NCBI GenBank assembly: GCA_963796635.1
Contig: CAWCMH010000001.1
Span: forward strand, 198,296 to 262,295
Direction: 5' to 3'
Source of the DNA: an uncultured Gemmatimonadales bacterium
GTDB lineage: Bacteria > Gemmatimonadota > Gemmatimonadetes > Gemmatimonadales > GWC2-71-9
Length of the DNA: 64,000 nucleotides
The position numbers and the translations under genes were made by a program. How positions within the stretch are numbered: the first letter of the stretch is position 1; each line of letters starts with the position of its first letter. Below, one piece after another: positions 8,097 through 52,590 of the stretch. Below the pieces are notes generated by a model that saw nothing but the letters and a program-made list of their open reading frames with translations, did no database searches and was not told where the DNA came from.

Positions 8097-8119
8097 ACGA
8101 GGGCGAATCGGTCGCGAGC

Positions 8120-9526
8120 CTAGCGCCTGACCGGCGCCGAGATCAGCTGAAAGTGCAGTTCGTAGGTGCTGTCGGTCGGTGCGGCCAGCCAGATCTCGCC
8201 GTGCGCGCCGCTGGTCGATTGGAAGCCCGCGCTGGGGAGGTCGCCACCGAACGGGTTGGCGCCTTCGGGACTCCAATCCTGGGGGAGTGACGCGGCCACG
8301 TCCTGCACCAGCGCGTCGTAATACGCGCGTTCGCGATCTGCGTCGATGGGGATAGCGCAGGACATAGTCGTGGTCGAGTCGCCCTGCACCACCCAGCATC
8401 CGCGTGCGATCTGCGGTTTCACGCCCGACGTCCACATCCGAAAGCCCTGCTGCAAGATCACGTTGCCGCTCTTGTACGCGTCGAAGCCGGTCTTCGATGC
8501 GGCGAGGTAGGTGGCGACGTCCTGGTGCACCCAATTGAACAGCACTCCCCGGCCGTTGGGCGTGAGCGTTTCGGCATCGCCTTCAGTCACCGGCACAAAG
8601 ACGGTATCGGACGTGGCGTCGGCGGGCGTGTATTGCCAGGCGGTCTCGACGACGTGCTTGTTGGCGGCGGCGAGGGCCGTTGTCAGGCTCTGCTTCTTGG
8701 CCGCCATGTCGGCGGCTGAGGTGGCCGTGGTCGGGGAGTAGACGCAGGCCACCAGGCCGTCGGCGCCCGAGTATTCGTAGTGGGTGACCAGGAACATCTG
8801 GAAGTGGAGCTGAGCGTGCTCGAACGTCATGAAATTGTCGGTTTTCGACCCGGCATCGGGGAGGTCGAAGAAGTCGCTGACATACACGACCGGCTGCTTG
8901 TCGGTCGACGAGCAGAAATAGGTGATCGACGCACCGCTGGTCGGCGATGTAGTCGTGGTGGCGGCGACGTCGGTTGACGTGGAAGCGGTGCCGATCGCGA
9001 CGGAGGATGTTGCGCCGTCCCAGTGAAGATCGTAGGTGTATTGCCCGGGACCGGCCGGCATGAAATCGTAGGTGACCGGGAGCCTCATGCTCGCGTGGCA
9101 GTTGACGGCGGGATCGCCGGCGGATTCCGGATACTTGAAGCCAGTGTTCGCGTTGACGTCGGCGCAGATCTGCCCGGTACCCGATTGCATCCACCCCTGC
9201 TTGTCCGCGTTGGCGTCCTGGTATGCGCGCCAGCTGCCGTTGTTCTTGGCCATCAACACGATGCGCGCGCCCGATTGTGGCGTAATCGGGCCGGCGGCGT
9301 CGTAGGACTCGTCGTACACGACCTCGCACGCTCCAGCTTTCACCTGATACCAGCCGCTGGTTTCCCAGCGGTAGCCGGTGAAAAAGAGCTGGATGCGGGC
9401 GGCGTAGGCGACGTCGATGGTGACGGGGCCCTTGTTGCAGATGGTGAGGGTCGCGTTCTGGGCGTGGATCGTGGCAGGGAAGGTGAGCAGGGCGCAGGCG
9501 GGGAGAAGCGCGGCGAATCGGGTCAT
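8120..9526 (-). CDS. Secreted protein with DUF1036-like N-terminal domain
   Basis: Signal peptide MTRFAALLPACALLTFPATIHAQ. N-terminal pattern LTICNKGPVTIDVAYA...GYRWETSGWYQVKAGACEVV resembles DUF1036. GGAGAA lies upstream of the ATG. Confidence 0.6.
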   Translation of the reverse strand: MTRFAALLPACALLTFPATIHAQNATLTICNKGPVTIDVAYAARIQLFFTGYRWETSGWYQVKAGACEVVYDESYDAAGPITPQSGARIVLMAKNNGSWRAYQDANADKQGWMQSGTGQICADVNANTGFKYPESAGDPAVNCHASMRLPVTYDFMPAGPGQYTYDLHWDGATSSVAIGTASTSTDVAATTTTSPTSGASITYFCSSTDKQPVVYVSDFFDLPDAGSKTDNFMTFEHAQLHFQMFLVTHYEYSGADGLVACVYSPTTATSAADMAAKKQSLTTALAAANKHVVETAWQYTPADATSDTVFVPVTEGDAETLTPNGRGVLFNWVHQDVATYLAASKTGFDAYKSGNVILQQGFRMWTSGVKPQIARGCWVVQGDSTTTMSCAIPIDADRERAYYDALVQDVAASLPQDWSPEGANPFGGDLPSAGFQSTSGAHGEIWLAAPTDSTYELHFQLISAPVRR

Positions 9527-9773
9527 GCGAATTCTCCGTGGCGGAGACTGCGCGGTGCGGGCGTGCTGGTTCGATTGAGGTGGTAAGTATCGCGCGGGGT
9601 GGGGAGGGGCGCCAGCGGGGGCGGCAAGACACGATGGTTTGAAGGCGGGCTGACTGAGGGGCGGCTCGCATGTCCGTCGAATTAGCTAGACTTGTTGGTG
9701 TGCTGCCGGATTTATGCTGCGGGTGAGGCAGGTCCAATACACGTTAGCCAGACGGATTGAGGTGCCGAGCCAA

Positions 9774-10277
9774 ATGCGCGCGCGAGTGTTCATGCTCGTC
9801 AGTACCGTTCTCGCCGGCAGCGTTTCGGCCGGCGAGGGACAAGTCACCGGAAGCGGCGTTGCCGACACGGTCGCCGTTCATCATTTGCTCGGGTGCTACC
9901 GGCTGCAGATGCAGCCCGATGACTCCACGGAATCACAGACACATGCGTTCGACCAGTGGCCCGCACGCTTTCACCTGACGAGCGTGGCCCAAGGGACCCG
10001 AGGCCCAGGTTCGGGCCACTGCGCGCTGAACCGGATCCATGGGTCATGGCAGATGGGCGGTCAAGGTTCCTCGGCTCGTGGCGTCTGCTGGGGGCCGACA
10101 CGCTCCTGGTCGGTTGGACCGACGGTTACAGCACGTTCGGCCTCCACCTCGGCATGCACAGCGACACGCTGCGCGGAACCGGCGAACTGGGAAGCGACCT
10201 GGTCATCTACTCGGAATCCCCGCCCCGTATGCGATTCGTCGCCGCGAGAATTCCTTGCGACAGCGCCACGAATGGTC
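9774..10277 (+). pseudogene. First cassette ORF, apparently frameshifted and 3'-disrupted by IS481 copy A
   Basis: A signal-peptide-like N-terminus (MRARVFMLVSTVLAGSVSA) lies in frame 0. A protein-like C-terminal part (RFLGSWRLLGADTLLVGWTDGYSTFGLHLG...) lies in frame 2 (ORF 9956..10300). Removing the IS restores ...SATNGHAG + TAA inside the attC R'' box. Confidence 0.4.
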
Positions 10278-11593
10278 GGAGCAGTCGGGGACATCGGTAA
10301 CAGATAGACCGAGGACATAGGTAACACTTCTCAAGTTGGTTTCATGCACCGAGGAGGTGCGTGATGCCGTGGAGAGTGGAGACCCCTATGTCGCAGCGGC
10401 AGGATTTTGTCGAGGCGTTTGCGCGCGAGCACTGGCAGATGACGGAGCTCTGTGCGCGGTTCGGCATCAGTCGAAAGACCGGTCACAAATGGTGGCGGCG
10501 ATTCCAGGTCGAGGGCGCGGCGGGATTCGTAGAGCACTCGCGACGGCCGGTGACGAGCCCGACACTCTTGGATGGGGAGCTCGCGGCGCTGGTTGTGCGC
10601 ACGCGGCAGGCGCATCCGACGTGGGGTCCGCGCAAGCTGCTGGCCTATCTCGCACGGCGGCATCCGCGACGCGACCCATGGCCGGTCGCGAGTACGGTGG
10701 GCGCGCTGCTCAAGCGAGAAGGGCTGGTGCGCGCCCGCCGGCGGCGTCCTGCGCCCGGCCATCCCGGGCGACCGACCACCCCGATGGACGCGCCGAACGC
10801 GCTGTGGACCGTCGATTTCAAGGGACAGTTTCGCTTGGGCACCGGCGCGTACTGCTATCCACTCACCATCGTCGATGGCTACTCGCGCTATTTGCTGGCG
10901 TGTCACGGCTTGCCGTCGACGGCGAGTGTCGGTGCGCGGAGCGTCTTCGAGCGGATCTTCCGGACGTATGGTTTGCCGGATCGCATTCGCAGCGACAACG
11001 GCACCCCCTTTGCGACGTGCGCGCTGGGTCGACTCTCGGCGCTCAGTGTGTGGTGGCTGAAGCTGGGCATCACGCCGGAGCTCATTCAGCCTGCGCACCC
11101 CGAACAGAATGGGCGGCATGAACGGATGCATCGCACGCTGAAGGCGGAAGCGACGCGACCCGCGGCCCAGACGCCCCGTGGTCAGCAACGTCGCTTCGAT
11201 GCCTTTCAGCAGGACTACAACACGGAGCGGCCCCACGAGGCCCTCGGCCAGGAACCGCCGGCGCAGCACTACGTCGCCTCGCCACGCGCGTACCCACGGA
11301 CGATCCGGAGCCCAGAGTACCCGCGCCACTACGAGACCCGGTATGTCTCGACCAACGGCGGCATCCGTTGGCAGCATCGGTGGGTGAACGTGAGCCATGT
11401 CCTGGCGGAGGAGTACGTCGGACTCGATGAGGTCGCCGATGGCATCTGGTCGGTGTATTTCGGCGACCTCTTGCTGGGGCGGCTGGATGAGCGAGATTAT
11501 CGGATGCACGGCGCGCACAATCGGAACCGGATCTAACGCAGGTGTAACCGATGTCCTCGGTCCAACGTGTAACCCATGTCCTCAGTCTGTACC
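10278..11593 (+). mobile_element. IS481-family insertion sequence, copy A (1316 bp)
   Basis: The 1316-bp unit is present three times in the window. Imperfect terminal IRs are GGAGCAGTCGGGGACATCGG... and (reverse complement) GGTACAGACTGAGGACATGG..., each with two GAGGACAT-N-GGTWACAC-like boxes. 3-bp direct repeat GTC at 10275-10277 and 11594-11596. Confidence 0.9.
10361..11536 (+). CDS. IS481-family DDE transposase
   Basis: 391 aa. N-terminal HTH (ELCARFGISRKTGHKWWRRF). rve-type core (WTVDFKG...IVDGYSRY...IRSDNGTPF...HPEQNGRHERMHRTLK). The protein is identical in all three copies. Confidence 0.9.
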   Translation: MMPWRVETPMSQRQDFVEAFAREHWQMTELCARFGISRKTGHKWWRRFQVEGAAGFVEHSRRPVTSPTLLDGELAALVVRTRQAHPTWGPRKLLAYLARRHPRRDPWPVASTVGALLKREGLVRARRRRPAPGHPGRPTTPMDAPNALWTVDFKGQFRLGTGAYCYPLTIVDGYSRYLLACHGLPSTASVGARSVFERIFRTYGLPDRIRSDNGTPFATCALGRLSALSVWWLKLGITPELIQPAHPEQNGRHERMHRTLKAEATRPAAQTPRGQQRRFDAFQQDYNTERPHEALGQEPPAQHYVASPRAYPRTIRSPEYPRHYETRYVSTNGGIRWQHRWVNVSHVLAEEYVGLDEVADGIWSVYFGDLLLGRLDERDYRMHGAHNRNRI

Positions 11594-11601
11594 GTCACGC
11601 T

Positions 11602-11720
11602 GGCTAACCCGCGCTTGCTGCTGGCCGGGTGTAAGCGTGTCGGCGCAGCGCGAGGTAGATTTATCTAAGGACTGCGGCGGCCTCACCTGCCCTCGCAGCA
11701 GAAGCGCAGAGTCGTTAGGT
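11602..11720 (+). repeat. attC-like site 1 (119 bp)
   Basis: R'' GGCTAAC ... R' GTTAGGT. Arms GCGCTT-G-CTGCTG pair with CAGCAG-AAGCGC. IS481 copy A ends 8 nt upstream. Confidence 0.75.
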
Positions 11721-11742
11721 GCACGGACGAACCGAGGACCCG

Positions 11743-12144
11743 ATGACGCGCATCATCACGTTGCCGGCCCTGAAGTCGACGCTCCTGTTCATCATTCTCG
11801 ACCTTGTCGGTGTCGGGATCATCGGCGATGCAGTGGCCAAATGGCTTGGCTTCGACACATCCTTCTTGATGCCGGTCTCGGCGGGGATCTGCATTGGCGC
11901 CGGCTATGCAGCAACGCGGCGTGGTATGTGGGGGGCGACAGCCGGAAGCATGGTGACGAGTGTAGAGATGATCGCGTATCTTGTGACTGGCAATCGTACG
12001 TCGGATATCGTTCCGCAAGATCAAGCGGCGACTATCGCCGTGATGATTGTCTTTGCGGTGTCGCTCGCTGGCGCGACACTTGGCGCGATAGGCGGGTGGG
12101 TCGCGCACCATCGTGTCCGCGTCTCCGCGGCGACCGGCACCTAA
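11743..12144 (+). CDS. Cassette ORF: small multi-pass membrane protein
   Basis: ATG at 11743 lies 23 nt after the R' box. Four hydrophobic segments. The stop TAA (12142-12144) lies inside the next R'' box ACCTAAC. Confidence 0.6.
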   Translation: MTRIITLPALKSTLLFIILDLVGVGIIGDAVAKWLGFDTSFLMPVSAGICIGAGYAATRRGMWGATAGSMVTSVEMIAYLVTGNRTSDIVPQDQAATIAVMIVFAVSLAGATLGAIGGWVAHHRVRVSAATGT

Positions 12145-12228
12145 CTGGCGCTTGCTGCGGACGGCCGCGCAGCAATCGAGTAGCTTCGCTACGGTGCGCG
12201 GCCGCCGCAGAAGCGCCGAGCGTTATAT
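12139..12228 (+). repeat. attC-like site 2 (90 bp)
   Basis: R'' ACCTAAC ... R' GTTATAT. Arms GCGCTT-G-CTGCGG-A-CGGCCGCGC pair with GCGCGGCCG-CCGCAG-AAGCGC. Confidence 0.7.
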
Positions 12229-12248
12229 CGACTAGAACTCGGAGCCAG

Positions 12249-12905
12249 ATGCGAACCACGTTCCTCCTCGGCACTGCACTATTGGGCCTCTCCGGCCGCG
12301 CTGCCGGTCAGCAGTGCAAGCGCACCGCCACCTACGTGACGGCCTTTGTCCTCGATACGATCAGCATCGATCGCCAGTCGTACCAGGCAGACACCATCTC
12401 CGGCGCCCTGCTCGGCAAGGGCGGGCCGCAGCAGTGGAGCCTCATTCGCTATCGTGCGGTGATGGCCCCTGACGGTTTGGTGCGGACGCTGGCGTTATCG
12501 GTGTGGCCTCTCGCCGCCGATAGTGCACTCCCGCCGAGGCAGACGAGCGAGCTGACGTTCGGCCCTCAGACCGTCGTGGCGGTGGTCACCGATGCGCGGC
12601 GAGGCAGTCAGACCCAGGTGGACTCTGTCGCCCCTGGCACCATGCCGTACATGGACAATGCACCCTTCTTTACCGCTTCCATCGTCCGCCGCGGCATCGG
12701 CTTCAAAGCCGACTCGGTCGATATCCCCATGCTTTGGCTCTTCACCCGAGGCACCAAGGAAATCGTCACGATTGTGCGGAAAGGAGGCGACTCGCTCCTC
12801 CTGCGTACGCCGCGCATGCAACTCACTGCGAGAACCTCTGGTGGGCAGCTACTCAGCTCGTGGCGCAACGACAGCGTGGCGATCACACGGTCGGCCTGCA
12901 ACTGA
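12249..12905 (+). CDS. Cassette ORF: secreted hypothetical protein
   Basis: Internal ATG at 12249 of the artefactually long ORF 11397..12905. Signal peptide MRTTFLLGTALLGLSGRAAGQ. Ends 8 nt before the attC. Confidence 0.6.
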   Translation: MRTTFLLGTALLGLSGRAAGQQCKRTATYVTAFVLDTISIDRQSYQADTISGALLGKGGPQQWSLIRYRAVMAPDGLVRTLALSVWPLAADSALPPRQTSELTFGPQTVVAVVTDARRGSQTQVDSVAPGTMPYMDNAPFFTASIVRRGIGFKADSVDIPMLWLFTRGTKEIVTIVRKGGDSLLLRTPRMQLTARTSGGQLLSSWRNDSVAITRSACN

Positions 12906-12913
12906 GTGGGGCG

Positions 12914-13036
12914 GTATAACAAGCGCTTGCTGCTGGCCGGGTGTGCGCGTGGCAGCGCGGCGCGAGGTATGATTTGTTGCTAGGGACTGCGCCGCGCCGC
13001 CACACACCCGGCAGCAGAAGCGCAGGGTCGTTAGAG
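12914..13036 (+). repeat. attC-like site 3 (123 bp)
   Basis: R'' GTATAAC ... R' GTTAGAG. Arms GCGCTT-G-CTGCTG-G-CCGGGTGTG pair with CACACACCCGG-CAGCAG-AAGCGC. Close relative of site 1. Confidence 0.75.
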
Positions 13037-13113
13037 CGACTCCGCCCAACGTGGCGCCCGACCTGCAAGCGAGCATTTCTGCTCCGTAGGACGCCCTGCT
13101 GGGTCGAGGTAAA

Positions 13114-13410
13114 TTGCACGCCATGAGCCCGTCCATCGAGGAAATCCGGGGGAAAGTGGCGGCGCCGATGCGTCGGCACGGCGTCGTACACGCGAGTGTA
13201 TTCGGCTCCGTCGCCCGTGGCGACGCTGGCGCCGGGAGTGACGTGGATTTTCTTGTGGAATTTGAGCGCGGGCGAAGCCTCCTCGATCTCGCCGGTCTCC
13301 GGTCCGACTTGATCGCAGCGCTCGGCCGGGGCGTCGATATCGCCACATCCAATTCGTTGCATCCTCGGCTCCGCGATCGCATCCTGGCGGAGCTCGTGCC
13401 GCTGCTATGA
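13114..13410 (+). CDS. Cassette ORF: nucleotidyltransferase (MNT-type antitoxin)
   Basis: 98 aa. Motif VFGSVARGDAGAGSDVDFLVEF (GS...DxD minimal NTase). ATGA overlap with the downstream DUF86 gene. Confidence 0.8.
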   Translation: MHAMSPSIEEIRGKVAAPMRRHGVVHASVFGSVARGDAGAGSDVDFLVEFERGRSLLDLAGLRSDLIAALGRGVDIATSNSLHPRLRDRILAELVPLL

Positions 13411-13769
13411 GCCGCGGCGTGGCCCTCCTGCTCGGTGAAGTGCTCGAGGCGATTCGCCTCGTGGAGCAATACACGGACGGCCTGTCGTTCGCGGCGTTCT
13501 CGACGAGCATCGAAAAACAGGACGCGGTTGTTCGGCGGCTTGCCGTGATCGGCGAGGCGGTGAAGGGAGTGCCGGAGGAGTTTCGCGCTCGTTATCCCGA
13601 GATTCCGTGGCGTGATATTGCCGGCGCGCGGGACATTCTGATTCACGAATACTTCCGTATCGATCTTGAGCTCGCTTGGGAAATGGCGCGCAGCGACTTG
13701 CCGGCGCTCGCCGCGCGCATCCGCGCCGTAATGCAGGCGGAAGCGTTCGATGAACACGGGGCGCTCTAA
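13407..13769 (+). CDS. Cassette ORF: HEPN/DUF86 (HepT-type toxin)
   Basis: 120 aa. RDILIHEY fits the Rx4HxY HEPN RNase motif. The stop TAA (13767-13769) lies inside R'' CTCTAAC. Confidence 0.8.
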   Translation: MSRGVALLLGEVLEAIRLVEQYTDGLSFAAFSTSIEKQDAVVRRLAVIGEAVKGVPEEFRARYPEIPWRDIAGARDILIHEYFRIDLELAWEMARSDLPALAARIRAVMQAEAFDEHGAL

Positions 13770-13854
13770 CAAGCGCTTGCTGCGGGCGGCCGCGCTGATG
13801 ATGTTGCGCCTTCGGCGCGGACGCGGCCGCCGCAGAAGCGCAGAGTCGTTAGGT
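13764..13854 (+). repeat. attC-like site 4 (91 bp)
   Basis: R'' CTCTAAC ... R' GTTAGGT. Arms GCGCTT-G-CTGCGG-G-CGGCCGCG pair with CGCGGCCG-CCGCAG-AAGCGC, leaving two single-G bulges on the R''/L'' arm. Confidence 0.8.
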
Positions 13855-13903
13855 GGCAAGGGTCGGGATTCCGCGACCGTCCATCAACTGAGAGATCACT
13901 TCT

Positions 13904-14189
13904 ATGGTGCCTGAATCCATACAGCCGATCTATGTCACGGTAATGGGATGGCTGGCGCTTACCTGCGGTATCATCTTGGTCGTTCGGGCGGGAACTCGCT
14001 GGCAGGCCCTGATCGATAAGCCGGCGTTGCGGGTCCAGGAAGCGATCAATGGGGCCAATAGCACGATTATCGGCATCACAGTTGTTGTGCCTGGGTTGCC
14101 ATCGCCCCTACGGATGTTCCTCTTCCTCCTGGTCATCGGAATGAGCGCGACCAGTCTGCTCGTTCGTCGTGCCGCGAACCGTGCGGCCC
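13904..14189 (+). pseudogene. Cassette ORF (small membrane protein) 3'-disrupted by IS481 copy B
   Basis: Two hydrophobic helices. The present tail SSRGHR* is encoded by the IS end. Removing the IS restores ...AANRAARAA + TAA inside R'' GCCTAAC. Confidence 0.6.
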
Positions 14190-15505
14190 GGAGCAGTCGG
14201 GGACATCGGTAACAGATAGACCGAGGACATAGGTAACACTTCTCAAGTTGGTTTCATGCACCGAGGAGGTGCGTGATGCCGTGGAGAGTGGAGACCCCTA
14301 TGTCGCAGCGGCAGGATTTTGTCGAGGCGTTTGCGCGCGAGCACTGGCAGATGACGGAGCTCTGTGCGCGGTTCGGCATCAGTCGAAAGACCGGTCACAA
14401 ATGGTGGCGGCGATTCCAGGTCGAGGGCGCGGCGGGATTCGTAGAGCACTCGCGACGGCCGGTGACGAGCCCGACACTCTTGGATGGGGAGCTCGCGGCG
14501 CTGGTTGTGCGCACGCGGCAGGCGCATCCGACGTGGGGTCCGCGCAAGCTGCTGGCCTATCTCGCACGGCGGCATCCGCGACGCGACCCATGGCCGGTCG
14601 CGAGTACGGTGGGCGCGCTGCTCAAGCGAGAAGGGCTGGTGCGCGCCCGCCGGCGGCGTCCTGCGCCCGGCCATCCCGGGCGACCGACCACCCCGATGGA
14701 CGCGCCGAACGCGCTGTGGACCGTCGATTTCAAGGGACAGTTTCGCTTGGGCACCGGCGCGTACTGCTATCCACTCACCATCGTCGATGGCTACTCGCGC
14801 TATTTGCTGGCGTGTCACGGCTTGCCGTCGACGGCGAGTGTCGGTGCGCGGAGCGTCTTCGAGCGGATCTTCCGGACGTATGGTTTGCCGGATCGCATTC
14901 GCAGCGACAACGGCACCCCCTTTGCGACGTGCGCGCTGGGTCGACTCTCGGCGCTCAGTGTGTGGTGGCTGAAGCTGGGCATCACGCCGGAGCTCATTCA
15001 GCCTGCGCACCCCGAACAGAATGGGCGGCATGAACGGATGCATCGCACGCTGAAGGCGGAAGCGACGCGACCCGCGGCCCAGACGCCCCGTGGTCAGCAA
15101 CGTCGCTTCGATGCCTTTCAGCAGGACTACAACACGGAGCGGCCCCACGAGGCCCTCGGCCAGGAACCGCCGGCGCAGCACTACGTCGCCTCGCCACGCG
15201 CGTACCCACGGACGATCCGGAGCCCAGAGTACCCGCGCCACTACGAGACCCGGTATGTCTCGACCAACGGCGGCATCCGTTGGCAGCATCGGTGGGTGAA
15301 CGTGAGCCATGTCCTGGCGGAGGAGTACGTCGGACTCGATGAGGTCGCCGATGGCATCTGGTCGGTGTATTTCGGCGACCTCTTGCTGGGGCGGCTGGAT
15401 GAGCGAGATTATCGGATGCACGGCGCGCACAATCGGAACCGGATCTAACGCAGGTGTAACCGATGTCCTCGGTCCAACGTGTAACCCATGTCCTCAGTCT
15501 GTACC
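14190..15505 (+). mobile_element. IS481-family insertion sequence, copy B (1316 bp)
   Basis: Identical to copy A throughout the compared ends and transposase. 3-bp direct repeat CCC at 14187-14189 and 15506-15508. Ends 8 nt upstream of R'' GCCTAAC. Confidence 0.9.
14273..15448 (+). CDS. IS481-family DDE transposase
   Basis: 391-aa product identical to that of 10361..11536. Confidence 0.9.
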   Translation: MMPWRVETPMSQRQDFVEAFAREHWQMTELCARFGISRKTGHKWWRRFQVEGAAGFVEHSRRPVTSPTLLDGELAALVVRTRQAHPTWGPRKLLAYLARRHPRRDPWPVASTVGALLKREGLVRARRRRPAPGHPGRPTTPMDAPNALWTVDFKGQFRLGTGAYCYPLTIVDGYSRYLLACHGLPSTASVGARSVFERIFRTYGLPDRIRSDNGTPFATCALGRLSALSVWWLKLGITPELIQPAHPEQNGRHERMHRTLKAEATRPAAQTPRGQQRRFDAFQQDYNTERPHEALGQEPPAQHYVASPRAYPRTIRSPEYPRHYETRYVSTNGGIRWQHRWVNVSHVLAEEYVGLDEVADGIWSVYFGDLLLGRLDERDYRMHGAHNRNRI

Positions 15506-15513
15506 CCCGGGCT

Positions 15514-15630
15514 GCCTAACACGCGCTTGCTGCGGTCGAGGTCAAGCGGTTCGGCCGCCGCGATGTAGTCTTTATGTAAGGACTGCGGCGGCCTCACCTG
15601 GCCTCGCGGCAGAAGCGCACGCCGTTAGGC
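15514..15630 (+). repeat. attC-like site 5 (117 bp)
   Basis: R'' GCCTAAC ... R' GTTAGGC. The left arm GCGCTTGCTGCGG and right arm GCGGCAGAAGCGC match the family consensus. The central part is similar to site 1. Confidence 0.75.
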
Positions 15631-15679
15631 GGCGATGAACAACCGGTCAGGCCGGAACAGTCATCAGGAGTCCGACGGC

Positions 15680-16678
15680 ATGCATACCCTGTCTTTCGCA
15701 CTAACGGTCTTGCTCACCCCGCTGGGATCTCCTGCTCCGACCTGCGTCGGCGCGCCTCACGGACGCGAAGTGCCTGCGGACTTCGTCGCTGATATTCTGT
15801 TCGCTCGCTGGCATCTGAATAACGGTCAGACGCTTCGATTCTATCTCGACACCGGTGGTCCGGTCATTCTGTTTCCGGAGGCGGTGCCTCGGCTCGGCGT
15901 TGACCCTCGGTTGATTGTCAGCGCCCGAGACACAGTGCGTGGTGTGTACGTTCCCGGCACGATCGGTGATACGACCTTTCCGCTGCCGCTCATGATGCTC
16001 CACCCGAATCCAACGTCCTCCGACACCAGCCCCGTCCGCGTCATACCGTCGCGGCGTCAGGACGACCCCCGGTTGCGGGTCGATGGTGGGCTCGGCGCCT
16101 ACTGGTTCGCCGGCCGAGTGTGGACGATCGACTACCCGCACCGCCGCCTGTATTTCGACGGTTCCGATCCGGCCGAGCCTTCGACAATGCGATGCTGGGT
16201 ACCACTGGGGTTTCAGGTTGACTCGGCTGGGCAGCGGATGACGCAGTTTCCGCGGATCACGGCGAGCGTCGCCGGCGAATCCCTCGATTTTCTTGTCGAC
16301 ACCGGGGCATGGGTGACGCTCACCGATAGCGCGTGGCGCGTTATCGGCACAGGCGAGCCGCGCCATCGAGCTGCGAGCTTTATCGACAAGTCGGTCTTCG
16401 ATCGGTGGCACGCTCAGCATCCGAATTGGCAGGTAGTTCGCAATGCCGCCGCGTTCAATGGCTTCATGGACATGATTGAGGTGCCCAGGGTGGAGGTGGG
16501 AGGCCAGCACGTCGGGCCGGTATGGTTTGCCGCGCAGCCCACGTTTCACCAGTTCATGGCGCAGTATATGGACAAGCCTGTCGACGGCGCGCTTGGCGGA
16601 TCAGCGTGGAAGTACGTCACACTTGTGCTCGATTATCCGCGCGCCCGAGCAGCCGTGCTGACTGGAACGTCGCACTGA
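15680..16678 (+). CDS. Cassette ORF: secreted retropepsin/pepsin-like aspartic protease (two DTG motifs)
   Basis: AGGAG lies 10 nt upstream of the ATG at 15680. Signal-like N-terminus. Two Asp-Thr-Gly motifs (FYLDTGGPV and FLVDTGAWV). An alternative start at 15635 lies 4 nt after R'. Confidence 0.6.
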   Translation: MHTLSFALTVLLTPLGSPAPTCVGAPHGREVPADFVADILFARWHLNNGQTLRFYLDTGGPVILFPEAVPRLGVDPRLIVSARDTVRGVYVPGTIGDTTFPLPLMMLHPNPTSSDTSPVRVIPSRRQDDPRLRVDGGLGAYWFAGRVWTIDYPHRRLYFDGSDPAEPSTMRCWVPLGFQVDSAGQRMTQFPRITASVAGESLDFLVDTGAWVTLTDSAWRVIGTGEPRHRAASFIDKSVFDRWHAQHPNWQVVRNAAAFNGFMDMIEVPRVEVGGQHVGPVWFAAQPTFHQFMAQYMDKPVDGALGGSAWKYVTLVLDYPRARAAVLTGTSH

Positions 16679-16682
16679 GCCT

Positions 16683-16774
16683 GCCTAACCCCGCGCTTGC
16701 TGCGGCCGGCTGCGCAGGTGATGTTGCGCCTTCGGCGCTGACGCGGCCGCCGCAGAAGTGCAGAGTCGTTAGCC
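16683..16774 (+). repeat. attC-like site 6 (92 bp)
   Basis: R'' GCCTAAC ... R' GTTAGCC. The central GGTGATGTTGCGCCTTCGG loop is shared with site 4 and the half-site at 20352. Confidence 0.75.
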
Positions 16775-16824
16775 AGACAGCACGCCCTTCTTCGTGATCG
16801 CCTCTCCAAACCCTAGATTAATGA

Positions 16825-17060
16825 ATGCCGACGGTCCTGCGCTCCGGTCCCTACCGGTTCTTCTTCTACTCCGGAGACCGCGACGAACCGGCGCATGTAC
16901 ATTCGCGCGGGATGACTGCTACGCGAAGTTCTGGCTGGCGCCAGTGCGACTTGACGACGGCGGTGGGTTCAGCCGCAAAGAACTGGGCGCCGTCGAAGCT
17001 CTGATCAGCGAGCACGCCGCTGCGCTCCGGGAGGCCTGGAATGACTACTTCCCCGATTGA
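16825..17060 (+). pseudogene. Cassette ORF: DUF4160-family gene with apparent frameshift
   Basis: From ATG 16825 the frame reads MPTVLRSGPYRFFFYSGDRDEPAHVH, then loses frame. The rest (RDDCYAKFWLAPVRL...REAWNDYF) continues in the frame of ORF 16794..17060. Confidence 0.55.
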
Positions 17061-17358
17061 TCTCAAATTGGCCCTGGCGCAGAGCGTCACGGTCACGGAC
17101 GACGCGCTGATCGTCGAACTCGTCGATGGCCGCACACTGTCGGTGCCCGTGGCGTGGTATCCTCGGCTGGCGCACGGTGCGCCGGCGGAACGGGCGAAAT
17201 GGGAGTTCATCGGCCGCGGCCATGGGATCCATTGGCCGGCGCTCGATGAGGATATCAGCGTCGAGGATCTGCTTGCCGGACGACGCTCCGGCGAGAGCCA
17301 CGCGTCGCTGCAGCGATGGCTGGTCGCCCGGAAGCTGAGCAACCGGGGAAATGGTTGA
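17041..17358 (+). CDS. Cassette ORF: DUF2442-family protein (C-terminal tail replaced by IS-derived codons)
   Basis: 105 aa. Pattern DDALIVELVDGRTLSVPVAWYPRLAHG...WEFIGRGHGIHWPALDEDISVEDLL. The last ~7 codons derive from the mini-IS. Removing the IS restores ...ARKLRAT + TAA in R'' ACCTAAC. Confidence 0.7.
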   Translation: MTTSPIDLKLALAQSVTVTDDALIVELVDGRTLSVPVAWYPRLAHGAPAERAKWEFIGRGHGIHWPALDEDISVEDLLAGRRSGESHASLQRWLVARKLSNRGNG

Positions 17359-17749
17359 CACCGTAACCCGGGTACATGGTTGCCTGGAGCAGTTTCTTCG
17401 GCCCCCACAGGGGATGCTGGCGCCGCGTCGTGCAGAGCAACGCGGCGATTGCATCGGGAATGCGATGCGGACAGTGATGCGGGGCGCGGCTCCGATCGGC
17501 GAGCGCCGCCCGTCCGCCTTCCGCCGCCCGATCGAGCCACTTGTAGCCGGACTTTCGGCTGATGCCGTACCGCGCACACAGCTCAGTCATCGAGTAGCGT
17601 CCAGCGCGGACGTCGGCGATGAAGCGTTCTCGTTGTTCCACGGGTGCAGTCTCCAACCACGGCATGGCGAACCTCCGGAAGGTCCGCCAGGGTAGCCGTG
17701 TCAACCATGTTGCCGGTATACTCTGTCAACTATCTACCCGGTTTGTACC
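17336..17749 (-). mobile_element. Internally deleted derivative (~414 bp) of a second, related IS481-family element
   Basis: Retains both IR-like ends: window-left TGAGCAACCGGGGAAATGGTTGACAC...ACATGGTTGCC and right (reverse complement) GGTACAAACCGGGTAGATAGTTGACAG...ACATGGTTGACAC. Retains about 110 N-terminal transposase codons (MPWLETAPVEQRERFIADV...ELCARYGISRKSGYKWL...HPLWGPKKLLQ), homologous but not identical to the full-length copies. Ends 8 nt before R'' ACCTAAC. End positions are accurate to about 2 nt. Confidence 0.7.
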
Positions 17750-17757
17750 TGCGCGCC

Positions 17758-17841
17758 ACCTAACAGGTATCTGCTCCTGGCCGCGCGCGCCATGTCGCGG
17801 CTCCGCCGCACGCGCGGCAGCAGAAACACAATGCGTTCGGC
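17758..17841 (+). repeat. attC-like site 7 (84 bp)
   Basis: R'' ACCTAAC ... R' GTTCGGC. The left arm CTGCTCCTGGCCGCGCG pairs with CGCGCGGCAGCAG. Confidence 0.6.
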
Positions 17842-17876
17842 GTCCCCGAACATTCCCGCTTCGCGAGGTGTCTGCA

Positions 17877-18275
17877 ATGCGACTCACGCGCATCCTCTTG
17901 CTTGGCGGCCTCGGCGTCGTGGCCTATGATGTCGTCGCGTCGATGCTTGCCCGCGGCTTTGCGCTCACCTACGGGCGCTTTGCCATCGGCTCCTACGCGA
18001 TTTATCTCCTGACGGGTTATCTCGCCGCCCGCCGCGCACCGTTCTGGCATGGACCGCTGGCCGGCGCCGCAGTGGCCGCCGTCGAGGCCGGGCTGGGCTG
18101 GCCGCTCTCGGCCCAACTCGGGCCCGCGGACTCCGCGGCGGTGTATGCCTCGGCGCCCGCGGCTGCCCGCATAGGAATGGTCGTCCTTCTAGCGGCCGTC
18201 GGGGCCGCCTTGGGCCTCGTCGGCGCGGGCCTCGCTCAGATTGGCCGGGCGAGGCTCAGCCCAACGGACGCCTAA
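17877..18275 (+). CDS. Cassette ORF: small multi-pass membrane protein
   Basis: Internal ATG at 17877 of ORF 17619..18275 (MRLTRILLLGGLGVVAYDVV...). Four hydrophobic segments. The stop TAA lies inside GCCTAAT. Confidence 0.6.
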   Translation: MRLTRILLLGGLGVVAYDVVASMLARGFALTYGRFAIGSYAIYLLTGYLAARRAPFWHGPLAGAAVAAVEAGLGWPLSAQLGPADSAAVYASAPAAARIGMVVLLAAVGAALGLVGAGLAQIGRARLSPTDA

Positions 18276-18365
18276 TCACTGCATGCAGTAGAAAGGACAG
18301 CCCGGCTACTCCGCATTTCCTGAGATATGATCAGCTGCCCTGCAGCTGATGCGACCGCATTAGGC
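18270..18365 (+). repeat. attC-like site 8 (96 bp), variant boxes GCCTAAT ... ATTAGGC
   Basis: The terminal boxes are perfectly complementary, but both carry the paired change C>T / G>A at the conserved AAC/GTT position. The arm sequence differs from the main family. Confidence 0.5.
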
Positions 18366-18395
18366 AGCAATACCTGTCTCACGATGGCGGTGTGA

Positions 18396-18812
18396 ATGGT
18401 ACACGGCTCGCGATGGATCGCTCTTGTTGTGCTCGGGCTGCCCTGGGCACCACGCGCGGCAGCGCAGACCTCCCCTGACACGAGCCAGCGCGTTCGGGTC
18501 GAGTGCGGGGGCGCGGGCGTGACGGGAACAGACCGGGTTCAACCGCCCCAACGAACCGCCGCGAGCTTCCGCCGGGTAACGATGCCACCGGTTCCACGGG
18601 CGCTTCAGGACTCATTCTTTGTTGCTCAGTTCCATGTGACACCTCGCGGTACCGTTGATACCGTGATACTGAACGGTCTCGCTGATTCGTCGTTCGCGCG
18701 CCGGATGCGGCGCGACCTCATGGATGCGAGCTTCAAACCGGCAACCGTCGGTGGATGTCCGGTGGCCGCGTGGCTGAGCCTCGACGTGACCTTGAGGCGT
18801 GGCCGGCCGTGA
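18396..18812 (+). CDS. Cassette ORF: secreted TonB C-terminal-domain-like protein
   Basis: Signal peptide (IALVVLGLPWAPRAAAQ). The C-terminal ~80 aa pattern FFVAQFHVTPRGTVDTVILNGLADSSFARRMRRDLMDASFKPATVGGCPV resembles TonB_C. Confidence 0.55.
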   Translation: MVHGSRWIALVVLGLPWAPRAAAQTSPDTSQRVRVECGGAGVTGTDRVQPPQRTAASFRRVTMPPVPRALQDSFFVAQFHVTPRGTVDTVILNGLADSSFARRMRRDLMDASFKPATVGGCPVAAWLSLDVTLRRGRP

Positions 18813-18832
18813 ATCGAACGATCTGGATTGCT

Positions 18833-18895
18833 GCCTGACACGCGCGTGGTGCCGGCGAGGCCAGGGCGGTTCGGCAGAAGCGCCGGCCGTGAGGC
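18833..18895 (+). repeat. attC-like site 9 (63 bp)
   Basis: R'' GCCTGAC ... R' GTGAGGC. Arms GCGCGTGGTGCCG / CGGCAGAAGCGC match the family consensus. Confidence 0.55.
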
Positions 18896-18946
18896 GCCAG
18901 CTCGCAACTTCCTACCGAGGGGGCCTTCATTTCGCGGCGGTCCGGC

Positions 18947-19453
18947 ATGTGGAAGTTCACGGTTCTGACGGGAGTGTGGACGTTCGCGGTCGCGTACGCC
19001 GTGTGGTTTGGCATTCGCGTGTGGACGGACGCCGGGGTGATGATGTACGCCGGGCACTCGCTATCGTTGATCATGTGGGGTGTTCCGCTCCTCCCGGTGC
19101 TGCTGATGACGTGGTGGTTGCTATGGCGATGGACCGGTGCGCGCCAACGGGTTCCACCCATCTTTTTCTGCGGCTGGGTGGCGTTGATCGTGATTCCGGG
19201 ACCGCCGTTGCCGATGACGCACAGCATTCCCGCACATGGTGAAACGATCACCACCGTTGCTCCGATCTTCTGGGTCATGATGGGGTTGGTGAGCGTTGGG
19301 CCAGTCGCTTTGACAATCGCGATGTGGTATTCGACAATTCAGGCCCGACGCTTCGCAGGCCGCCACACCCCCGGCCGCAGAAGCGCAGCGTCGTTGGGCA
19401 GACGGCGAGGCGGCTCCTGGGCAAGGTGGCTTGATGCTCTACATGGTCGTTGA
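18947..19453 (+). CDS. Cassette ORF: multi-pass membrane protein reading through its attC
   Basis: 168 aa with Trp-rich hydrophobic helices. There is no stop before or in the attC: the R'' box is GCCCGAC, so the in-frame codon is CGA where other cassettes have TAA. The ORF runs on to 19453. Confidence 0.55.
   Translation: MWKFTVLTGVWTFAVAYAVWFGIRVWTDAGVMMYAGHSLSLIMWGVPLLPVLLMTWWLLWRWTGARQRVPPIFFCGWVALIVIPGPPLPMTHSIPAHGETITTVAPIFWVMMGLVSVGPVALTIAMWYSTIQARRFAGRHTPGRRSAASLGRRRGGSWARWLDALHGR
19343..19399 (+). repeat. attC-like site 10 (57 bp)
   Basis: R'' GCCCGAC ... R' GTTGGGC. The right arm GGCCGCAGAAGCGCAGCGTC matches the family consensus. Confidence 0.6.
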
Positions 19454-19703
19454 GAATTTTCGAGGGGACCCCAAGGCCGTGTACCGTCGCTTCCGGGACC
19501 GAGGTCGGCTGGCGCCGGAAGGCCTCCGTTATGTGAACAGCTGGGTGACCGAGGACCTGCAGCGCTGCTACCAGATAATGGAGTGCGCGGACCTCGCCCT
19601 TCTTGAGGAATGGATGGGTCGCTGGAAGGACCTCGTTGAATTCGAGGTCCTTCCCGTCATGACCTCGCCGGAGGCCGCTGACCTCATCGGTCCTCGGCTA
19701 TGA
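19434..19703 (+). CDS. Cassette ORF: DUF3303-family protein
   Basis: MLYMVVENFRGDPKAVYRRFRDRGRLAPEGLRYVNSWV...CYQIMECADLALLEEWMGRWKDLVEFEVLPVMTS matches the DUF3303 pattern as I remember it. Confidence 0.65.
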   Translation: MLYMVVENFRGDPKAVYRRFRDRGRLAPEGLRYVNSWVTEDLQRCYQIMECADLALLEEWMGRWKDLVEFEVLPVMTSPEAADLIGPRL

Positions 19704-19791
19704 TGCTGCCCAGCATCGCATTGCCGCGGATGATCGCCGTTCCTCGCTTCGCCCGGTCGGGCGCTCACCGCTGAACGCCACGACGTTAGGC
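19696..19791 (+). repeat. attC-like site 11 (degenerate left box)
   Basis: Good R' GTTAGGC (19785-19791). The left box is GGCTATG with weak arm pairing. A tight hairpin GATGCTG-CC-CAGCATC lies at 19700-19715. Confidence 0.35.
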
Positions 19792-20046
19792 GGCCGGATC
19801 CGGTGGCCGATCCTGAAGGAAAGCACTGGCCGCCACGCTGGTGCTGATCGCGTACCGCGTGAACGACGGTCCACCATGTGCGCTGCCATTCCAGCGCGCT
19901 ACACTCCACGCGGAGCACGATGACCTCATCCCAGACCAACCGCAGCGAGCGCGGCCCCCGCGTGGCAATCGCGGTCCTGCCTCGGTCCGCAGAGTCAAGG
20001 GCGCGCCCGCGCAGTGACGCGATGACGACCCAAGCTGGGGACGCGG

Positions 20047-20333
20047 GTGAATCGCTCACGTCACCTTGGTAGCCAACCCACGATATTGTCCGTCGGTGAT
20101 GAGCTCGATATCACCCTCGTGACAATTGGGTCGGGTTCGTATGACTCGCTGGCCAGGATCTCGGCATCAGCCGCCAGCTTCCTTGATGCTGCCGAAGTGC
20201 CGCCCTATTCTCCGGGCGGGCCGCGACAGAAGTTTCGATTCCTGGCGCAGGTTCAGGCACGGCAGTCGTCACGTTCAAGTTCCGGTACGATGGGGCCAAT
20301 TCAACGGGTACAAGGACGATGCAGGTTCGGTGA
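20047..20333 (+). pseudogene. Cassette ORF with apparent frameshift (beta-sandwich-like small protein)
   Basis: The N-terminal part ILSVGDELDITLVTIGSGSYDSL...GGPRQKFRFLAQVQ is in the frame of ORF 20047..20364. A protein-like continuation GTAVVTFKFRYDGANSTGTRTMQVR* lies in another frame and ends at 20333. Confidence 0.35.
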
Positions 20334-20351
20334 GCCGCGCGTGACCGAGAG

Positions 20352-20416
20352 GCTGAGCAGGTGATGTTGCGCCTTCGGTACGAGCGCGGCCGCCGCAGAT
20401 GCGCAGGACGTTAGAG
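20352..20416 (+). repeat. attC half-site (centre + right arm only)
   Basis: GGCTGAGCAGGTGATGTTGCGCCTTCGG...GCGGCCGCCGCAGATGCGCAGGAC-GTTAGAG matches the centre and right arm of sites 4 and 6. There is no matching left arm or R''. Confidence 0.55.
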
Positions 20417-20446
20417 CGACTCACGACAACTCCTGTCGAGGACTGC

Positions 20447-20680
20447 ATGGCTCGATCGAAGCGTCGCACGCCGATTTTTGGCATGACCGCGCAGGAGAGC
20501 GAAAAGGACGACAAGCGTCGTGCGAATCGCCGACTGCGTCGCCGGGTGCGCGAGGTCGTCTCCGGATTCGTACTGCCCGACGTGCTGCGGGCCCTCCGGG
20601 AAGTCAGCAATCCGTGGTCCATGGCGAAGGACGGCCGGTCGTACTGGAAGGACGCTCGGGCCGTTGACCTCCGCAAGTAA
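20447..20680 (+). CDS. Cassette ORF: small basic protein
   Basis: Internal ATG at 20447 (MARSKRRTPIFGMTAQESEKDDKRRANRRLRRRVRE...). 77 aa. Function unknown. Confidence 0.5.
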   Translation: MARSKRRTPIFGMTAQESEKDDKRRANRRLRRRVREVVSGFVLPDVLRALREVSNPWSMAKDGRSYWKDARAVDLRK

Positions 20681-20708
20681 CATGCGGCCGGCTCGAGCGG
20701 GCAGGGCG

Positions 20709-20740
20709 CTCTAACCCGCGCTTGCTGCGGGCGGCCGTGC
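20709..20740 (+). repeat. attC half-site (R'' + left arm only)
   Basis: CTCTAAC-CC-GCGCTTGCTGCGGGCGGCCG matches the family left arm. No convincing right arm follows; a lone GTTGGGC at 20833 has poor pairing. Confidence 0.5.
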
Positions 20741-50776: not shown

Positions 50777-51274
50777 CGGGCTGTCCTGGAAGCAAGGTGG
50801 GTCGTTGGTGGCTCGCAGGACACAGCTTACTCCCTAACAACCCGTGAGGCCACTAGGGAAACACCTAGTGAGATGGGTCCTGGGTGCTTTACTAGTTCCC
50901 CTGACGCCGGAATTCTTCGTATCCTATGTGCCTGCGATGGCCAATGGTCAGCAGAGCGCTTTGCGGTCAAAGCCAGTCATTGCAGGCGAGGATTACCGTG
51001 CGAGCAATCAGGAATGTCGAATCCCAGAGCGCATGGTGTATGGCGCGGGCGTCAGGCTACACGCGTTCCGAGATCATGGAATGCCACCCAATGGCCCGCA
51101 GATGCCTTGTAACGATACGATCGTAACCACGAGACCAGTTCGCAAAGGACCCACTATGGCTCCCATGTTTAGCTCGACCACAAGATCATCAGGTACACGC
51201 TCCTTTGACGATGATCTCCGTGCCGGGGGACGGCTCGGCGCGATCGTGCTACTACTGCTTGTTAGCACGCATCT

Positions 51275-52590
51275 GGTACAGACTGAGGACATGGGTTACA
51301 CGTTGGACCGAGGACATCGGTTACACCTGCGTTAGATCCGGTTCCGATTGTGCGCGCCGTGCATCCGATAATCTCGCTCATCCAGCCGCCCCAGCAAGAG
51401 GTCGCCGAAATACACCGACCAGATGCCATCGGCGACCTCATCGAGTCCGACGTACTCCTCCGCCAGGACGTGGCTCACGTTCACCCACCGATGCTGCCAA
51501 CGGATGCCGCCGTTGGTCGAGACATACCGGGTCTCGTAGTGGCGCGGGTACTCTGGGCTCCGGATCGTCCGTGGGTACGCGCGTGGCGAGGCGACGTAGT
51601 GCTGCGCCGGCGGTTCCTGGCCGAGGGCCTCGTGGGGCCGCTCCGTGTTGTAGTCCTGCTGAAAGGCATCGAAGCGACGTTGCTGACCACGGGGCGTCTG
51701 GGCCGCGGGTCGCGTCGCTTCCGCCTTCAGCGTGCGATGCATCCGTTCATGCCGCCCATTCTGTTCGGGGTGCGCAGGCTGAATGAGCTCCGGCGTGATG
51801 CCCAGCTTCAGCCACCACACACTGAGCGCCGAGAGTCGACCCAGCGCGCACGTCGCAAAGGGGGTGCCGTTGTCGCTGCGAATGCGATCCGGCAAACCAT
51901 ACGTCCGGAAGATCCGCTCGAAGACGCTCCGCGCACCGACACTCGCCGTCGACGGCAAGCCGTGACACGCCAGCAAATAGCGCGAGTAGCCATCGACGAT
52001 GGTGAGTGGATAGCAGTACGCGCCGGTGCCCAAGCGAAACTGTCCCTTGAAATCGACGGTCCACAGCGCGTTCGGCGCGTCCATCGGGGTGGTCGGTCGC
52101 CCGGGATGGCCGGGCGCAGGACGCCGCCGGCGGGCGCGCACCAGCCCTTCTCGCTTGAGCAGCGCGCCCACCGTACTCGCGACCGGCCATGGGTCGCGTC
52201 GCGGATGCCGCCGTGCGAGATAGGCCAGCAGCTTGCGCGGACCCCACGTCGGATGCGCCTGCCGCGTGCGCACAACCAGCGCCGCGAGCTCCCCATCCAA
52301 GAGTGTCGGGCTCGTCACCGGCCGTCGCGAGTGCTCTACGAATCCCGCCGCGCCCTCGACCTGGAATCGCCGCCACCATTTGTGACCGGTCTTTCGACTG
52401 ATGCCGAACCGCGCACAGAGCTCCGTCATCTGCCAGTGCTCGCGCGCAAACGCCTCGACAAAATCCTGCCGCTGCGACATAGGGGTCTCCACTCTCCACG
52501 GCATCACGCACCTCCTCGGTGCATGAAACCAACTTGAGAAGTGTTACCTATGTCCTCGGTCTATCTGTTACCGATGTCCCCGACTGCTCC
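51275..52590 (-). mobile_element. IS481-family insertion sequence, copy C (1316 bp)
   Basis: Same ends as copies A and B. One synonymous difference in the transposase gene (His codon CAT vs CAC). 3-bp direct repeat TCT at 51272-51274 and 52591-52593. The right end lies 7 nt from a TGCTAAC motif (complement of GTTAGCA 51261-51267). Confidence 0.9.
51332..52507 (-). CDS. IS481-family DDE transposase
   Basis: 391-aa product identical to that of copies A and B. Confidence 0.9.
   Translation of the reverse strand: MMPWRVETPMSQRQDFVEAFAREHWQMTELCARFGISRKTGHKWWRRFQVEGAAGFVEHSRRPVTSPTLLDGELAALVVRTRQAHPTWGPRKLLAYLARRHPRRDPWPVASTVGALLKREGLVRARRRRPAPGHPGRPTTPMDAPNALWTVDFKGQFRLGTGAYCYPLTIVDGYSRYLLACHGLPSTASVGARSVFERIFRTYGLPDRIRSDNGTPFATCALGRLSALSVWWLKLGITPELIQPAHPEQNGRHERMHRTLKAEATRPAAQTPRGQQRRFDAFQQDYNTERPHEALGQEPPAQHYVASPRAYPRTIRSPEYPRHYETRYVSTNGGIRWQHRWVNVSHVLAEEYVGLDEVADGIWSVYFGDLLLGRLDERDYRMHGAHNRNRI

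Follow-up and report, generated by a model that had tools for sequence, protein, structure and literature searches.

Can an insertion sequence (IS) that encodes a plain DDE transposase be directed to the attC sites of an integron-type cassette array? The question is raised by a stretch of 64,000 nucleotides from an uncultured Gemmatimonadales bacterium (assembly GCA_963796635.1, contig CAWCMH010000001.1, positions 198,296 to 262,295 of the forward strand), hereafter designated the window, in which, for three of four related elements, exactly 8 nt separate the IS end from the R'' box of an attC. We consider it probable (about 85%) that these elements are active IS481-family ISs whose transposition complex picks targets with a fixed spacing and orientation. 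The initial annotation, made from the sequence alone, had put forward such an attC-directed lineage on the basis of the three insertions. The proposal held up, since the same geometry was found in relatives of the transposase (68-96% protein identity) at a minimum of 13 further sites with a spacing of 8 nt and at one with a spacing of 7 nt.

Insertions next to attC in the window

The window contained three copies (A, B, and C) of a 1316-bp IS. Copies A and B were 100% identical over 1316 bp, and copy C differed from them by one mismatch (blastn and base-by-base comparison). Copies A and B, together with a 414-bp internally deleted derivative of a related IS481-type element, were located in a cassette array; copy C was located outside the array. 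Upon re-examination, the coordinates and junctions of the initial annotation were found to be exact. The elements, their target duplications, and the adjoining attC sites are as follows.

10278..11593, plus strand: IS copy A, 1316 bp (blastn, base-by-base comparison), starting with GGAGCAGTC... and finishing with ...CAGTCTGTACC; each end holds two GACATnGGTAACA-type repeats in subterminal position
10361..11536, plus strand: transposase of copy A, 391 aa, single open reading frame (ORF) (Pfam, NCBIfam NF033577)
10275..10277 (left) and 11594-11596 (right), plus strand: 3-bp target duplication GTC of copy A
11602..11720, plus strand: attC beside copy A, R'' GGCTAAC ... R' GTTAGGT, 79.5 bits
14190..15505, plus strand: IS copy B, identical to A, with its transposase at 14273-15448
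14187-14189 and 15506-15508: target duplication CCC of copy B
15514..15630, plus strand: attC beside copy B, R'' GCCTAAC ... R' GTTAGGC, 63.2 bits
17336..17749, minus strand: 414-bp derivative (Pfam HTH_32, HTH_28, and LZ_Tnp_IS481 on the ORF at 17255-17704, minus strand)
17758..17841, plus strand: attC beside the derivative, R'' ACCTAAC ... R' GTTCGGC, 28 bits, E = 5e-6
51275..52590, minus strand: IS copy C, outside the array, with its transposase at 51332-52507 (minus strand)
51272-51274 and 52591-52593: target duplication TCT of copy C (AGA in the orientation of the IS)
51261..51267, minus strand: R''-like heptamer (TGCTAAC) within a small hairpin (GTGCTA...TAGCAC); the TGTACC end of copy C is 7 nt away
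~9746..20740, plus strand: cassette array of integron type with 12 attC sites and, at ~20706-20740, a thirteenth that is truncated

The ...TGTACC end was separated from R'' by 8 nt in copy A (GTACC/GTCACGCT/GGCTAAC), in copy B (GTACC/CCCGGGCT/GCCTAAC), and in the 414-bp derivative (GTACC/TGCGCGCC/ACCTAAC, a GGTACA-type end). For copy C, the spacing was 7 nt rather than 8 (GTACC/AGATGCG/TGCTAAC). The probability that chance would place three of four elements exactly 8 nt ahead of any of the 12 intact attC sites found by a covariance model was ~3e-12, and ~4e-10 if the insertions are taken to be confined to the array. Chance is therefore excluded for the pattern in the window. The frequency of YTAAC in the window was 3.2e-4 per oriented position.

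The ends of the 1316-bp IS were imperfect inverted repeats of ~57 nt, each containing two GACATnGGTAACA-type repeats, with the terminus GGAGCAG on the transposase-proximal side and GGTACAG on the distal side. The target of copy C was the signal-peptide region of an ordinary ORF, which extended over up to 590 codons following removal of the IS, in keeping with the earlier description of an insertion 7 nt from TGCTAAC in an ordinary gene. Each array insertion had also been said to cut the cassette ORF just before a stop codon lying inside R''. This was the case for copy B and the derivative, the stop codon being the TAA within R''; for copy A, it was true in the frame with the highest G+C content at third codon positions.

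The two ends of the related IS (TGAGCAACC... and GGTACAAACC...) were retained in the 414-bp derivative, along with ~100 codons from the transposase N terminus, and the derivative had no second copy in the window. It had been counted as a third insertion of the same kind. Its 8-nt spacing was confirmed, but two attributes had to be corrected. The transposase fragment is on the minus strand, the attC-proximal TGTACC end thus being transposase-proximal, whereas the corresponding end is transposase-distal in copies A and B. Its direct repeat is ambiguous: it reads AGC/TGC with the boundaries originally chosen, and a shift of 1-2 nt at both ends gives a perfect CTG.

Family assignment of the transposase

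Pfam domains rve (7.7e-13), rve_3 (5e-16), HTH_32 (1.5e-10), and HTH_28 were detected in the transposase of copy A, together with LZ_Tnp_IS481 (29 bits for a cut-off of 22.2). The protein scored 231.7 bits with the NCBIfam IS481 equivalog model NF033577, a small margin over the cut-off of 224, and 111 bits with the IS3 model, below the cut-off of 160. The transposase was encoded by one 391-codon ORF filling the element without the programmed frameshift of IS3 elements. Transposase domains in the Pfam scan were of the rve type only, and the DEDD domains of IS110-type enzymes (DEDD_Tnp_IS110 / Transposase_20) were not found. In plasmid records, the closest relatives bearing an annotation shared 48% identity at most and were labeled 'IS481 family transposase'. 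By their sequences, the window elements are IS481-family DDE ISs, the assignment made initially. Two features were unusual for the family: the typical 5'-TGT termini were replaced by GGAGCAG or TGAGCAG on one side and by GGTACAG on the opposite side, and the 3-bp duplication was at the short end of the family range, in which target duplications extend from 2 to 15 bp and are mostly of 6 bp (PMC10045372).

Direct repeats and an uninterrupted cassette

The direct repeats GTC, CCC, and TCT reported for the full-length window copies (winA, winB, and winC) were all perfect, and perfect 3-bp repeats were also present at six loci of other genomes (L001, L007, L009, L010, L012, and L049). An uninterrupted homologue of cassette B, whose product was 68% identical at the protein level and whose stop codon was the TAA inside R'', was carried by contig L225. 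When the IS and one CCC were removed, the window aligned to L225 across the junction without a gap (...GCGGCCCGGGCTGCCTAAC versus ...GCGGCCCCGGCTGCCTAAC). According to this alignment, the IS was simply inserted with duplication of 3 bp; when the duplicated bases are counted, the junction is 8 nt ahead of R''. The cost of the insertion for the protein of cassette B was the loss of its last three residues.

Recurrence of the geometry in other genomes

Relatives were gathered by taking one genome per species, by scanning metagenome contigs for the right-end pattern, and by retrieving the contigs encoding the closest proteins; ~60 chance matches of the pattern search, as well as a class with C-rich flanks described below, were set aside. 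Counts that include metagenome matches are lower bounds among the matches listed. Many loci are short metagenome contigs, and some attC assignments rest on R'' and the 5' arm only.

In the lineage of the window IS, at least 16 of 20 sites abutted attC, 15 with a spacing of 8 nt and one with a spacing of 7 nt. Beyond winA and winB, these comprised at least 14 independent sites in independent metagenome-assembled genomes (MAGs) and metagenomes. Thirteen of them displayed TGTACC, 8 nt, R'', and then an attC or its 5' half (L001, L002, L080, L117, L201, L203, L204, L207/208, L209-211, L212, L213, L216/218/220, and L219), and for many sites of the lineage the covariance model confirmed the adjoining attC and detected further attC sites in the same loci. 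The fourteenth site, with the 7-nt spacing, was in L221, a 21-kb (20.9-kb) locus of a close relative containing at least 20 attC sites of the window type, in which no integrase was found among the genes called. The homologous IS of this locus (9915-13745, ~90% nucleotide identity) was interrupted by 2.5 kb of inserted DNA with IS30-like and IS3-like genes, and the array also held an IS110-family transposase gene (7359-8480).

Four sites of the lineage were not attC. In addition to winC (TGCTAAC at 7 nt), these were L205 (CACTAAC at 8 nt, inside a gene), L003 (CTGCTAC at 8 nt), and L008 (AGGTTAC at 8 nt), the latter two resembling R'' only in part. No significant hairpin was present in the flanks of L205, L003, and L008.

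More distant relatives (~42-56% protein identity) shared the geometry in several phyla. Sites were found in Thermoanaerobaculia and other Acidobacteriota (L004-L007, L009, L010, and L014), in Gemmatimonadales (L012, L013, and L049), in Neomarinimicrobiota (L011), in Marinacidobacterales and a related Gemmatimonadetes MAG (L033 and L035-L037), in one Longimicrobiales copy (L020), and in nine metagenome contigs (L101, L109, L129, L144, L149, L169, L177, L190, and L200). With the 414-bp derivative of the window (8 nt), 26 sites were thus outside the window lineage, bringing the total to at least 42 independent sites abutting R'' or attC, with spacings of 8 nt (32 sites), 7 nt (four), 9 nt (three), and 10 nt (three). 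For all 18 adjacent attC sites called by the model, the R'' end faced the IS, and never R'. The fixed offset and orientation across phyla argue for target capture by the transposition complex rather than for selection. The cultured relatives (plasmids of Rhizobium, Acidisarcina, and Leptospira; at most 48% identity) had no clear hairpin or attC at the ends of the IS.

Several loci displayed other arrangements. In L037 (~4209-4225), two IS copies were located head to tail, 3 nt apart (...GTTGCTCA/TCT/GGTACAACC...), as expected for a tandem dimer or a circle-junction-like intermediate of copy-out-paste-in ISs. In L096 and L172, a solo fragment of an IS end was fused without intervening sequence to the final 15 nt of an attC (L' and R'; CGCAGGAC/GTTAGAC), which may be the scar of an IS-mediated adjacent deletion. 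In L026, the GGTAAAACC end was followed by 15 nt and then by GGCCTAAC CGGTCGA GGCCTAAC, the R'' region of the neighboring attC being duplicated 15 nt apart and the IS not being at the usual 8 nt. In ten metagenome contigs (L097, L098, L102, L119, L122, L150, L159, L166, L175, and L189), C-rich runs (CCCCACCCCCCTCCCCCC...) came after ends that read ...CTGTCAGGnATGTCCCCGGTCTGTACC; in the seven with sufficient upstream sequence (L097, L119, L150, L159, L166, L175, and L189), no related transposase was found within 1.1-1.4 kb, and this class may correspond to a different or larger element with similar termini.

A sister clade at hairpins and the polarity of the ends

In a quick neighbor-joining tree, the attC users were separated from a second major branch containing elements of Terriglobia, Chloroflexota, Dehalococcoidia, a Burkholderiaceae MAG, and a Kingella MAG. 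In this sister clade, the homologous IS end (...GGACC or ...GTACC) was 7-9 nt from the foot of a C-rich hairpin or of a hairpin resembling repeated extragenic palindromes (REPs) in 16 of 23 loci. The rate for random positions of the same loci was 3.1% (P ~1e-19). One Terriglobia IS was found at either side of the same palindromic REP.

The two IS ends were distinguished by the spacer between their internal repeats (11 nt for the GGTACAG-type end and 10 nt for the TGAGCAG end). In most lineages, including the 414-bp derivative, the GGTACAG-type end adjoined the start of the transposase gene. The direction of the gene relative to the end types was opposite in the window lineage (compared with L129, L190, L144, L006, and others), but the GGTACAG end still faced the target. 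Thus, the asymmetry of the ends, and not the direction of the gene, goes with the polarity of insertion. Recombination between the two long inverted repeats would yield such a flip of the interior.

Target selection and alternative explanations

According to the mechanism that we propose, the GGTACAG-type end would be joined 8 nt outside the R'' box of attC, always on the side of the cassette ORF, and the 8 nt would consist of the 3-bp target duplication plus 5 nt. For the window lineage, the feature read would most likely be the R'' core (YTAAC, 11-14 nt from the IS end), and the stem-loop character of attC may help targeting. The insertion would remove only the last 2-3 codons of the cassette gene and leave attC intact, so that the IS would become a passenger in a cassette that is still able to recombine. 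A copy-out-paste-in pathway is suggested by analogy with IS3 and IS481. On the basis of sequence comparison, the transposase may read the R'' core sequence, the foot of the hairpin, or both, or less probably a bound protein.

The pattern could in principle have arisen without any insertion preference, by segmental or cassette duplication, by capture of an IS circle by the integrase, or by selection for harmless insertions, since cassette arrays tolerate insertions and since the attC sites of copies A and B belong to the same long subtype. We regard this explanation as highly improbable. Segmental duplication of the IS with its attC, against which the initial annotation had already argued, was ruled out because the ISs were identical whereas their flanks differed from the first base and the attC sites were only ~80% alike. 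Insertion of the IS as a cassette by the integrase was ruled out by the perfect 3-bp duplication proper to each full-length window copy, by a junction that lies 8 nt ahead of R'' instead of coinciding with the G/TT crossover of R', and by the location of copy C in an ordinary gene. Selection cannot fix an offset to the nucleotide across 42 sites in several phyla. Two refinements of the target were also considered. The G and C at positions 5-6 of the spacer were rejected as an additional preference, since unoccupied attC sites of the same arrays shared them, indicating that they belong to the attC consensus. Resemblance of the target to the GGTAACA repeat of the IS (a pseudo-end) was partial for CTAACA and failed in the hairpin clade.

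A stronger competitor, to which we give somewhat less than even odds, is that the complex recognizes the foot of an extruded hairpin or cruciform, or of a single-strand hairpin formed at replication, and inserts 8 nt away from it, CTAAC being incidental and attC merely an abundant hairpin. The frequency of hairpins at the targets of the sister clade and the use of both sides of one REP by the Terriglobia IS are in favor of this explanation, as is the fact that the 60-nt flank containing the target heptamer of copy C folded better than shuffled sequences (z = -3.2). However, a symmetric structure does not predict that attC is used on its R'' side only, the real stem foot of the attC beside copy B is at +5 and not at +8, and, in the metagenome flanks, the profile of stem starts gave a weak signal and the profile of pairing probabilities none. 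The non-attC sites with YTAAC at the right distance, and the presence of CTAAC or TAC at that distance in L205, L003, and L008 in spite of the lack of a significant hairpin, argue for reading of the R'' core sequence. The initial annotation had taken copy C to indicate recognition of a CTAAC-containing motif; winC and L205 support this interpretation, L003 and L008 resemble the motif only in part, and the hairpins of the sister clade point elsewhere.

Recruitment of the transposase by the integron integrase or by another attC-bound protein, as for Tn5053/Tn402, which need a resolvase-bound res site, would account for the strict orientation on the R'' side and for insertions in arrays rich in attC. 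There is also a parallel in ISAba32, which abuts the XerC arm of its target and for which a role of XerCD has been speculated (bioRxiv 10.1101/2022.12.17.520857). We nonetheless consider recruitment by a bound integrase to be unlikely, because no integrase gene was found in the larger array-flanking ORFs scanned with Pfam or among the genes called in the L221 locus, because insertions exist in ordinary genes outside attC, and because the sister clade inserts at REP-like hairpins, where no integrase is expected.

Several observations weigh against a complex that measures a fixed distance from the R'' core, the mechanism that we favor. The offset was 7, 9, or 10 nt in 10 of 42 sites, L003 and L008 have ...TAC in place of TAAC, and one related Longimicrobiales subclade had no clear specificity. 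In the sister clade, the hairpins used at this distance are unrelated in sequence, which argues for the reading of a structure rather than of the CTAAC sequence. About half of the copies outside the window had no direct repeat (among them L002, L201, L203, L204, L205, L208, L209, L216, L221, L006, L013, and L014); these junctions could plausibly have been rearranged, for example by recombination between co-oriented copies with swapping of flanks and loss of cassettes, or they may not all result from simple transposition. Finally, L209 and L210, from different samples, were 100% identical over 1560 nt (left flank, IS, 8 nt, and attC) and diverged right after GTTAGG of R'. Continued integrase recombination at that attC would give this divergence, but so could, equally, a branch of the assembly at a repeated attC.

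A broader interpretation, which we put forward tentatively and hold to be possible rather than probable, is that the clade as a whole would serve as a molecular ruler that reads DNA structure. Its transposases would recognize a stem-loop (attC, REP, or C-rich hairpin) by its foot and always insert the same IS end 8 nt away, the asymmetry of the ends setting the polarity; the attC branch would ride mobile cassettes between genomes.

The cassette array

The ORFs of the array were short and mostly on the plus strand, and most of them were then followed by attC. The attC sites had the expected hallmarks, namely an imperfect palindrome flanked by R'' (RYYYAAC) and R' (GTTRRRY) boxes, and seven of them aligned well. 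The covariance model, built from six sites of the array, gave matches in a single orientation at 11601, 12138, 12913, 13763, 15513, 16683, 17757, 18832, 19338, 19707, and 20327, and a weak match at 18269. The attC sites of copies A and B were closer to each other than to the other sites, and the attC of copy B folded as a single long imperfect hairpin (z = -4.85). No integrase (Phage_integrase domain) was detected by Pfam in array-flanking ORFs of at least ~130 aa near the array, which, within the window, looks like a cluster of attC sites lacking an integrase. In the 9000-22000 region, no Rfam family reached its gathering score, and there was accordingly no match to a group II ribozyme. Other features of the array and of the window are listed below.

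18269-18367, 18832-18897, and 20706-20740: degenerate or truncated attC sites of the distal array, one with TAAT/ATTA for TAAC/GTTA, one with TGAC/GTGA, and the last reduced to its R''-L'' half
13124-13769 and 16794-17358: among several cassettes that look like two-gene toxin-antitoxin-like pairs (small overlapping ORFs)
7040-7681 and 7674-8096: pair of the same kind, upstream of the array, made up of a nucleotidyltransferase carrying an HTH domain and the neighbor that overlaps it (only 7040-7681 was scanned)
36724-37918 and 55649-56843, both minus strand: two copies of a different IS, 96% identical over 1196 bp, with a 369-aa ORF passing the IS3 family model (201 bits for a cut-off of 160)

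Comparison with known systems

No report of attC targeting by IS481-type elements was found in the searched literature, in line with the initial annotation, which was aware of none, nor was anything relevant found there on IS481 in connection with REPs or hairpins. In recent papers on integrons, the IS1111 group alone is credited with targeting attC. Site-directed DDE ISs as such are already known; what is new here is a site-directed DDE IS aimed at attC.

IS481 of Bordetella generates a 6-bp duplication at NCTAGN and has TGT termini. The elements described here share with it the transposase family and a sequence preference at the target, but they differ by the 3-bp duplication, by the GGTACAG and TGAGCAG termini, and by a motif that is read outside the duplication.

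Members of the IS1111-attC group (IS110 family) are, like the present elements, attC-specific, inserted in one orientation, and widespread in cassette arrays. They reportedly insert inside attC, which splits the site, and generate no target duplication. Their DEDD transposase acts with a seeker or bridge RNA, whereas here a DDE (rve) enzyme inserts outside attC and leaves it whole.

IS1397 and ISKpn1 insert into the loop of the palindrome, whereas the insertions described here are ~8 nt outside the foot of the stem. Together with ISPpu9 and ISPpu10 of the IS110 family, these two IS3-family elements resemble the sister clade in their preference for REPs (PMC1525189), and IS481 is nowhere mentioned in the REP survey of Tobes and Pareja 2006 (PMC1525189). 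Group IIC-attC introns also home to attC in one orientation and are tolerated in arrays, but they are retroelements, with a ribozyme and a reverse transcriptase, that insert into attC (PMC3001079), whereas the ORF is a DDE transposase gene in the present elements.

The closest analogue is found in the IS1202 family, in which ISs of the ISAba32 subgroup adjoin XerCD sites (xrs/dif/pdif) (bioRxiv 10.1101/2022.12.17.520857). ISAba32 also has a DDE transposase related to IS481 and IS3, and it is also located beside a tyrosine-recombinase site delimiting mobile gene modules, at a fixed distance and in a strict orientation, with one IS end facing the site; this habit is common to several ISs of the subgroup. 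The likeness is functional only, the GGTACAG-type end facing R'' here (8 nt in 32 of 42 sites; R'' facing in 18 of 18). The target of ISAba32 is xrs, which the IS abuts directly, the distance being its 5-6 bp duplication, as opposed to 3 + 5 nt here. ISAba32 also belongs to a different family according to the NCBI model and has a longer transposase, whereas IS481 was the best family model here; in one phylogeny, IS1202 nests within IS481.

Implications

If the proposed targeting is correct, a plain DDE IS would be a third mechanistically unrelated class of elements at attC, beside the RNA-guided IS1111-type elements and the group IIC introns, and would show that cassette arrays have repeatedly been colonized as safe havens. 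Together with ISAba32 at Xer sites, it would point to recurring docking of IS481/IS1202-type elements next to the sites of tyrosine recombinases. Transposase genes found within cassettes in environmental integron surveys may often be targeted insertions of this type. A protein-only system with a fixed offset and orientation is also of possible interest for directed insertion. Blocks of cassettes could be lost or reordered through recombination between copies that have the same orientation. Since attC and nearly the whole cassette gene are spared, the ISs may travel inside cassettes, and, if the elements do act as rulers, the cassette pool would carry ISs between genomes.

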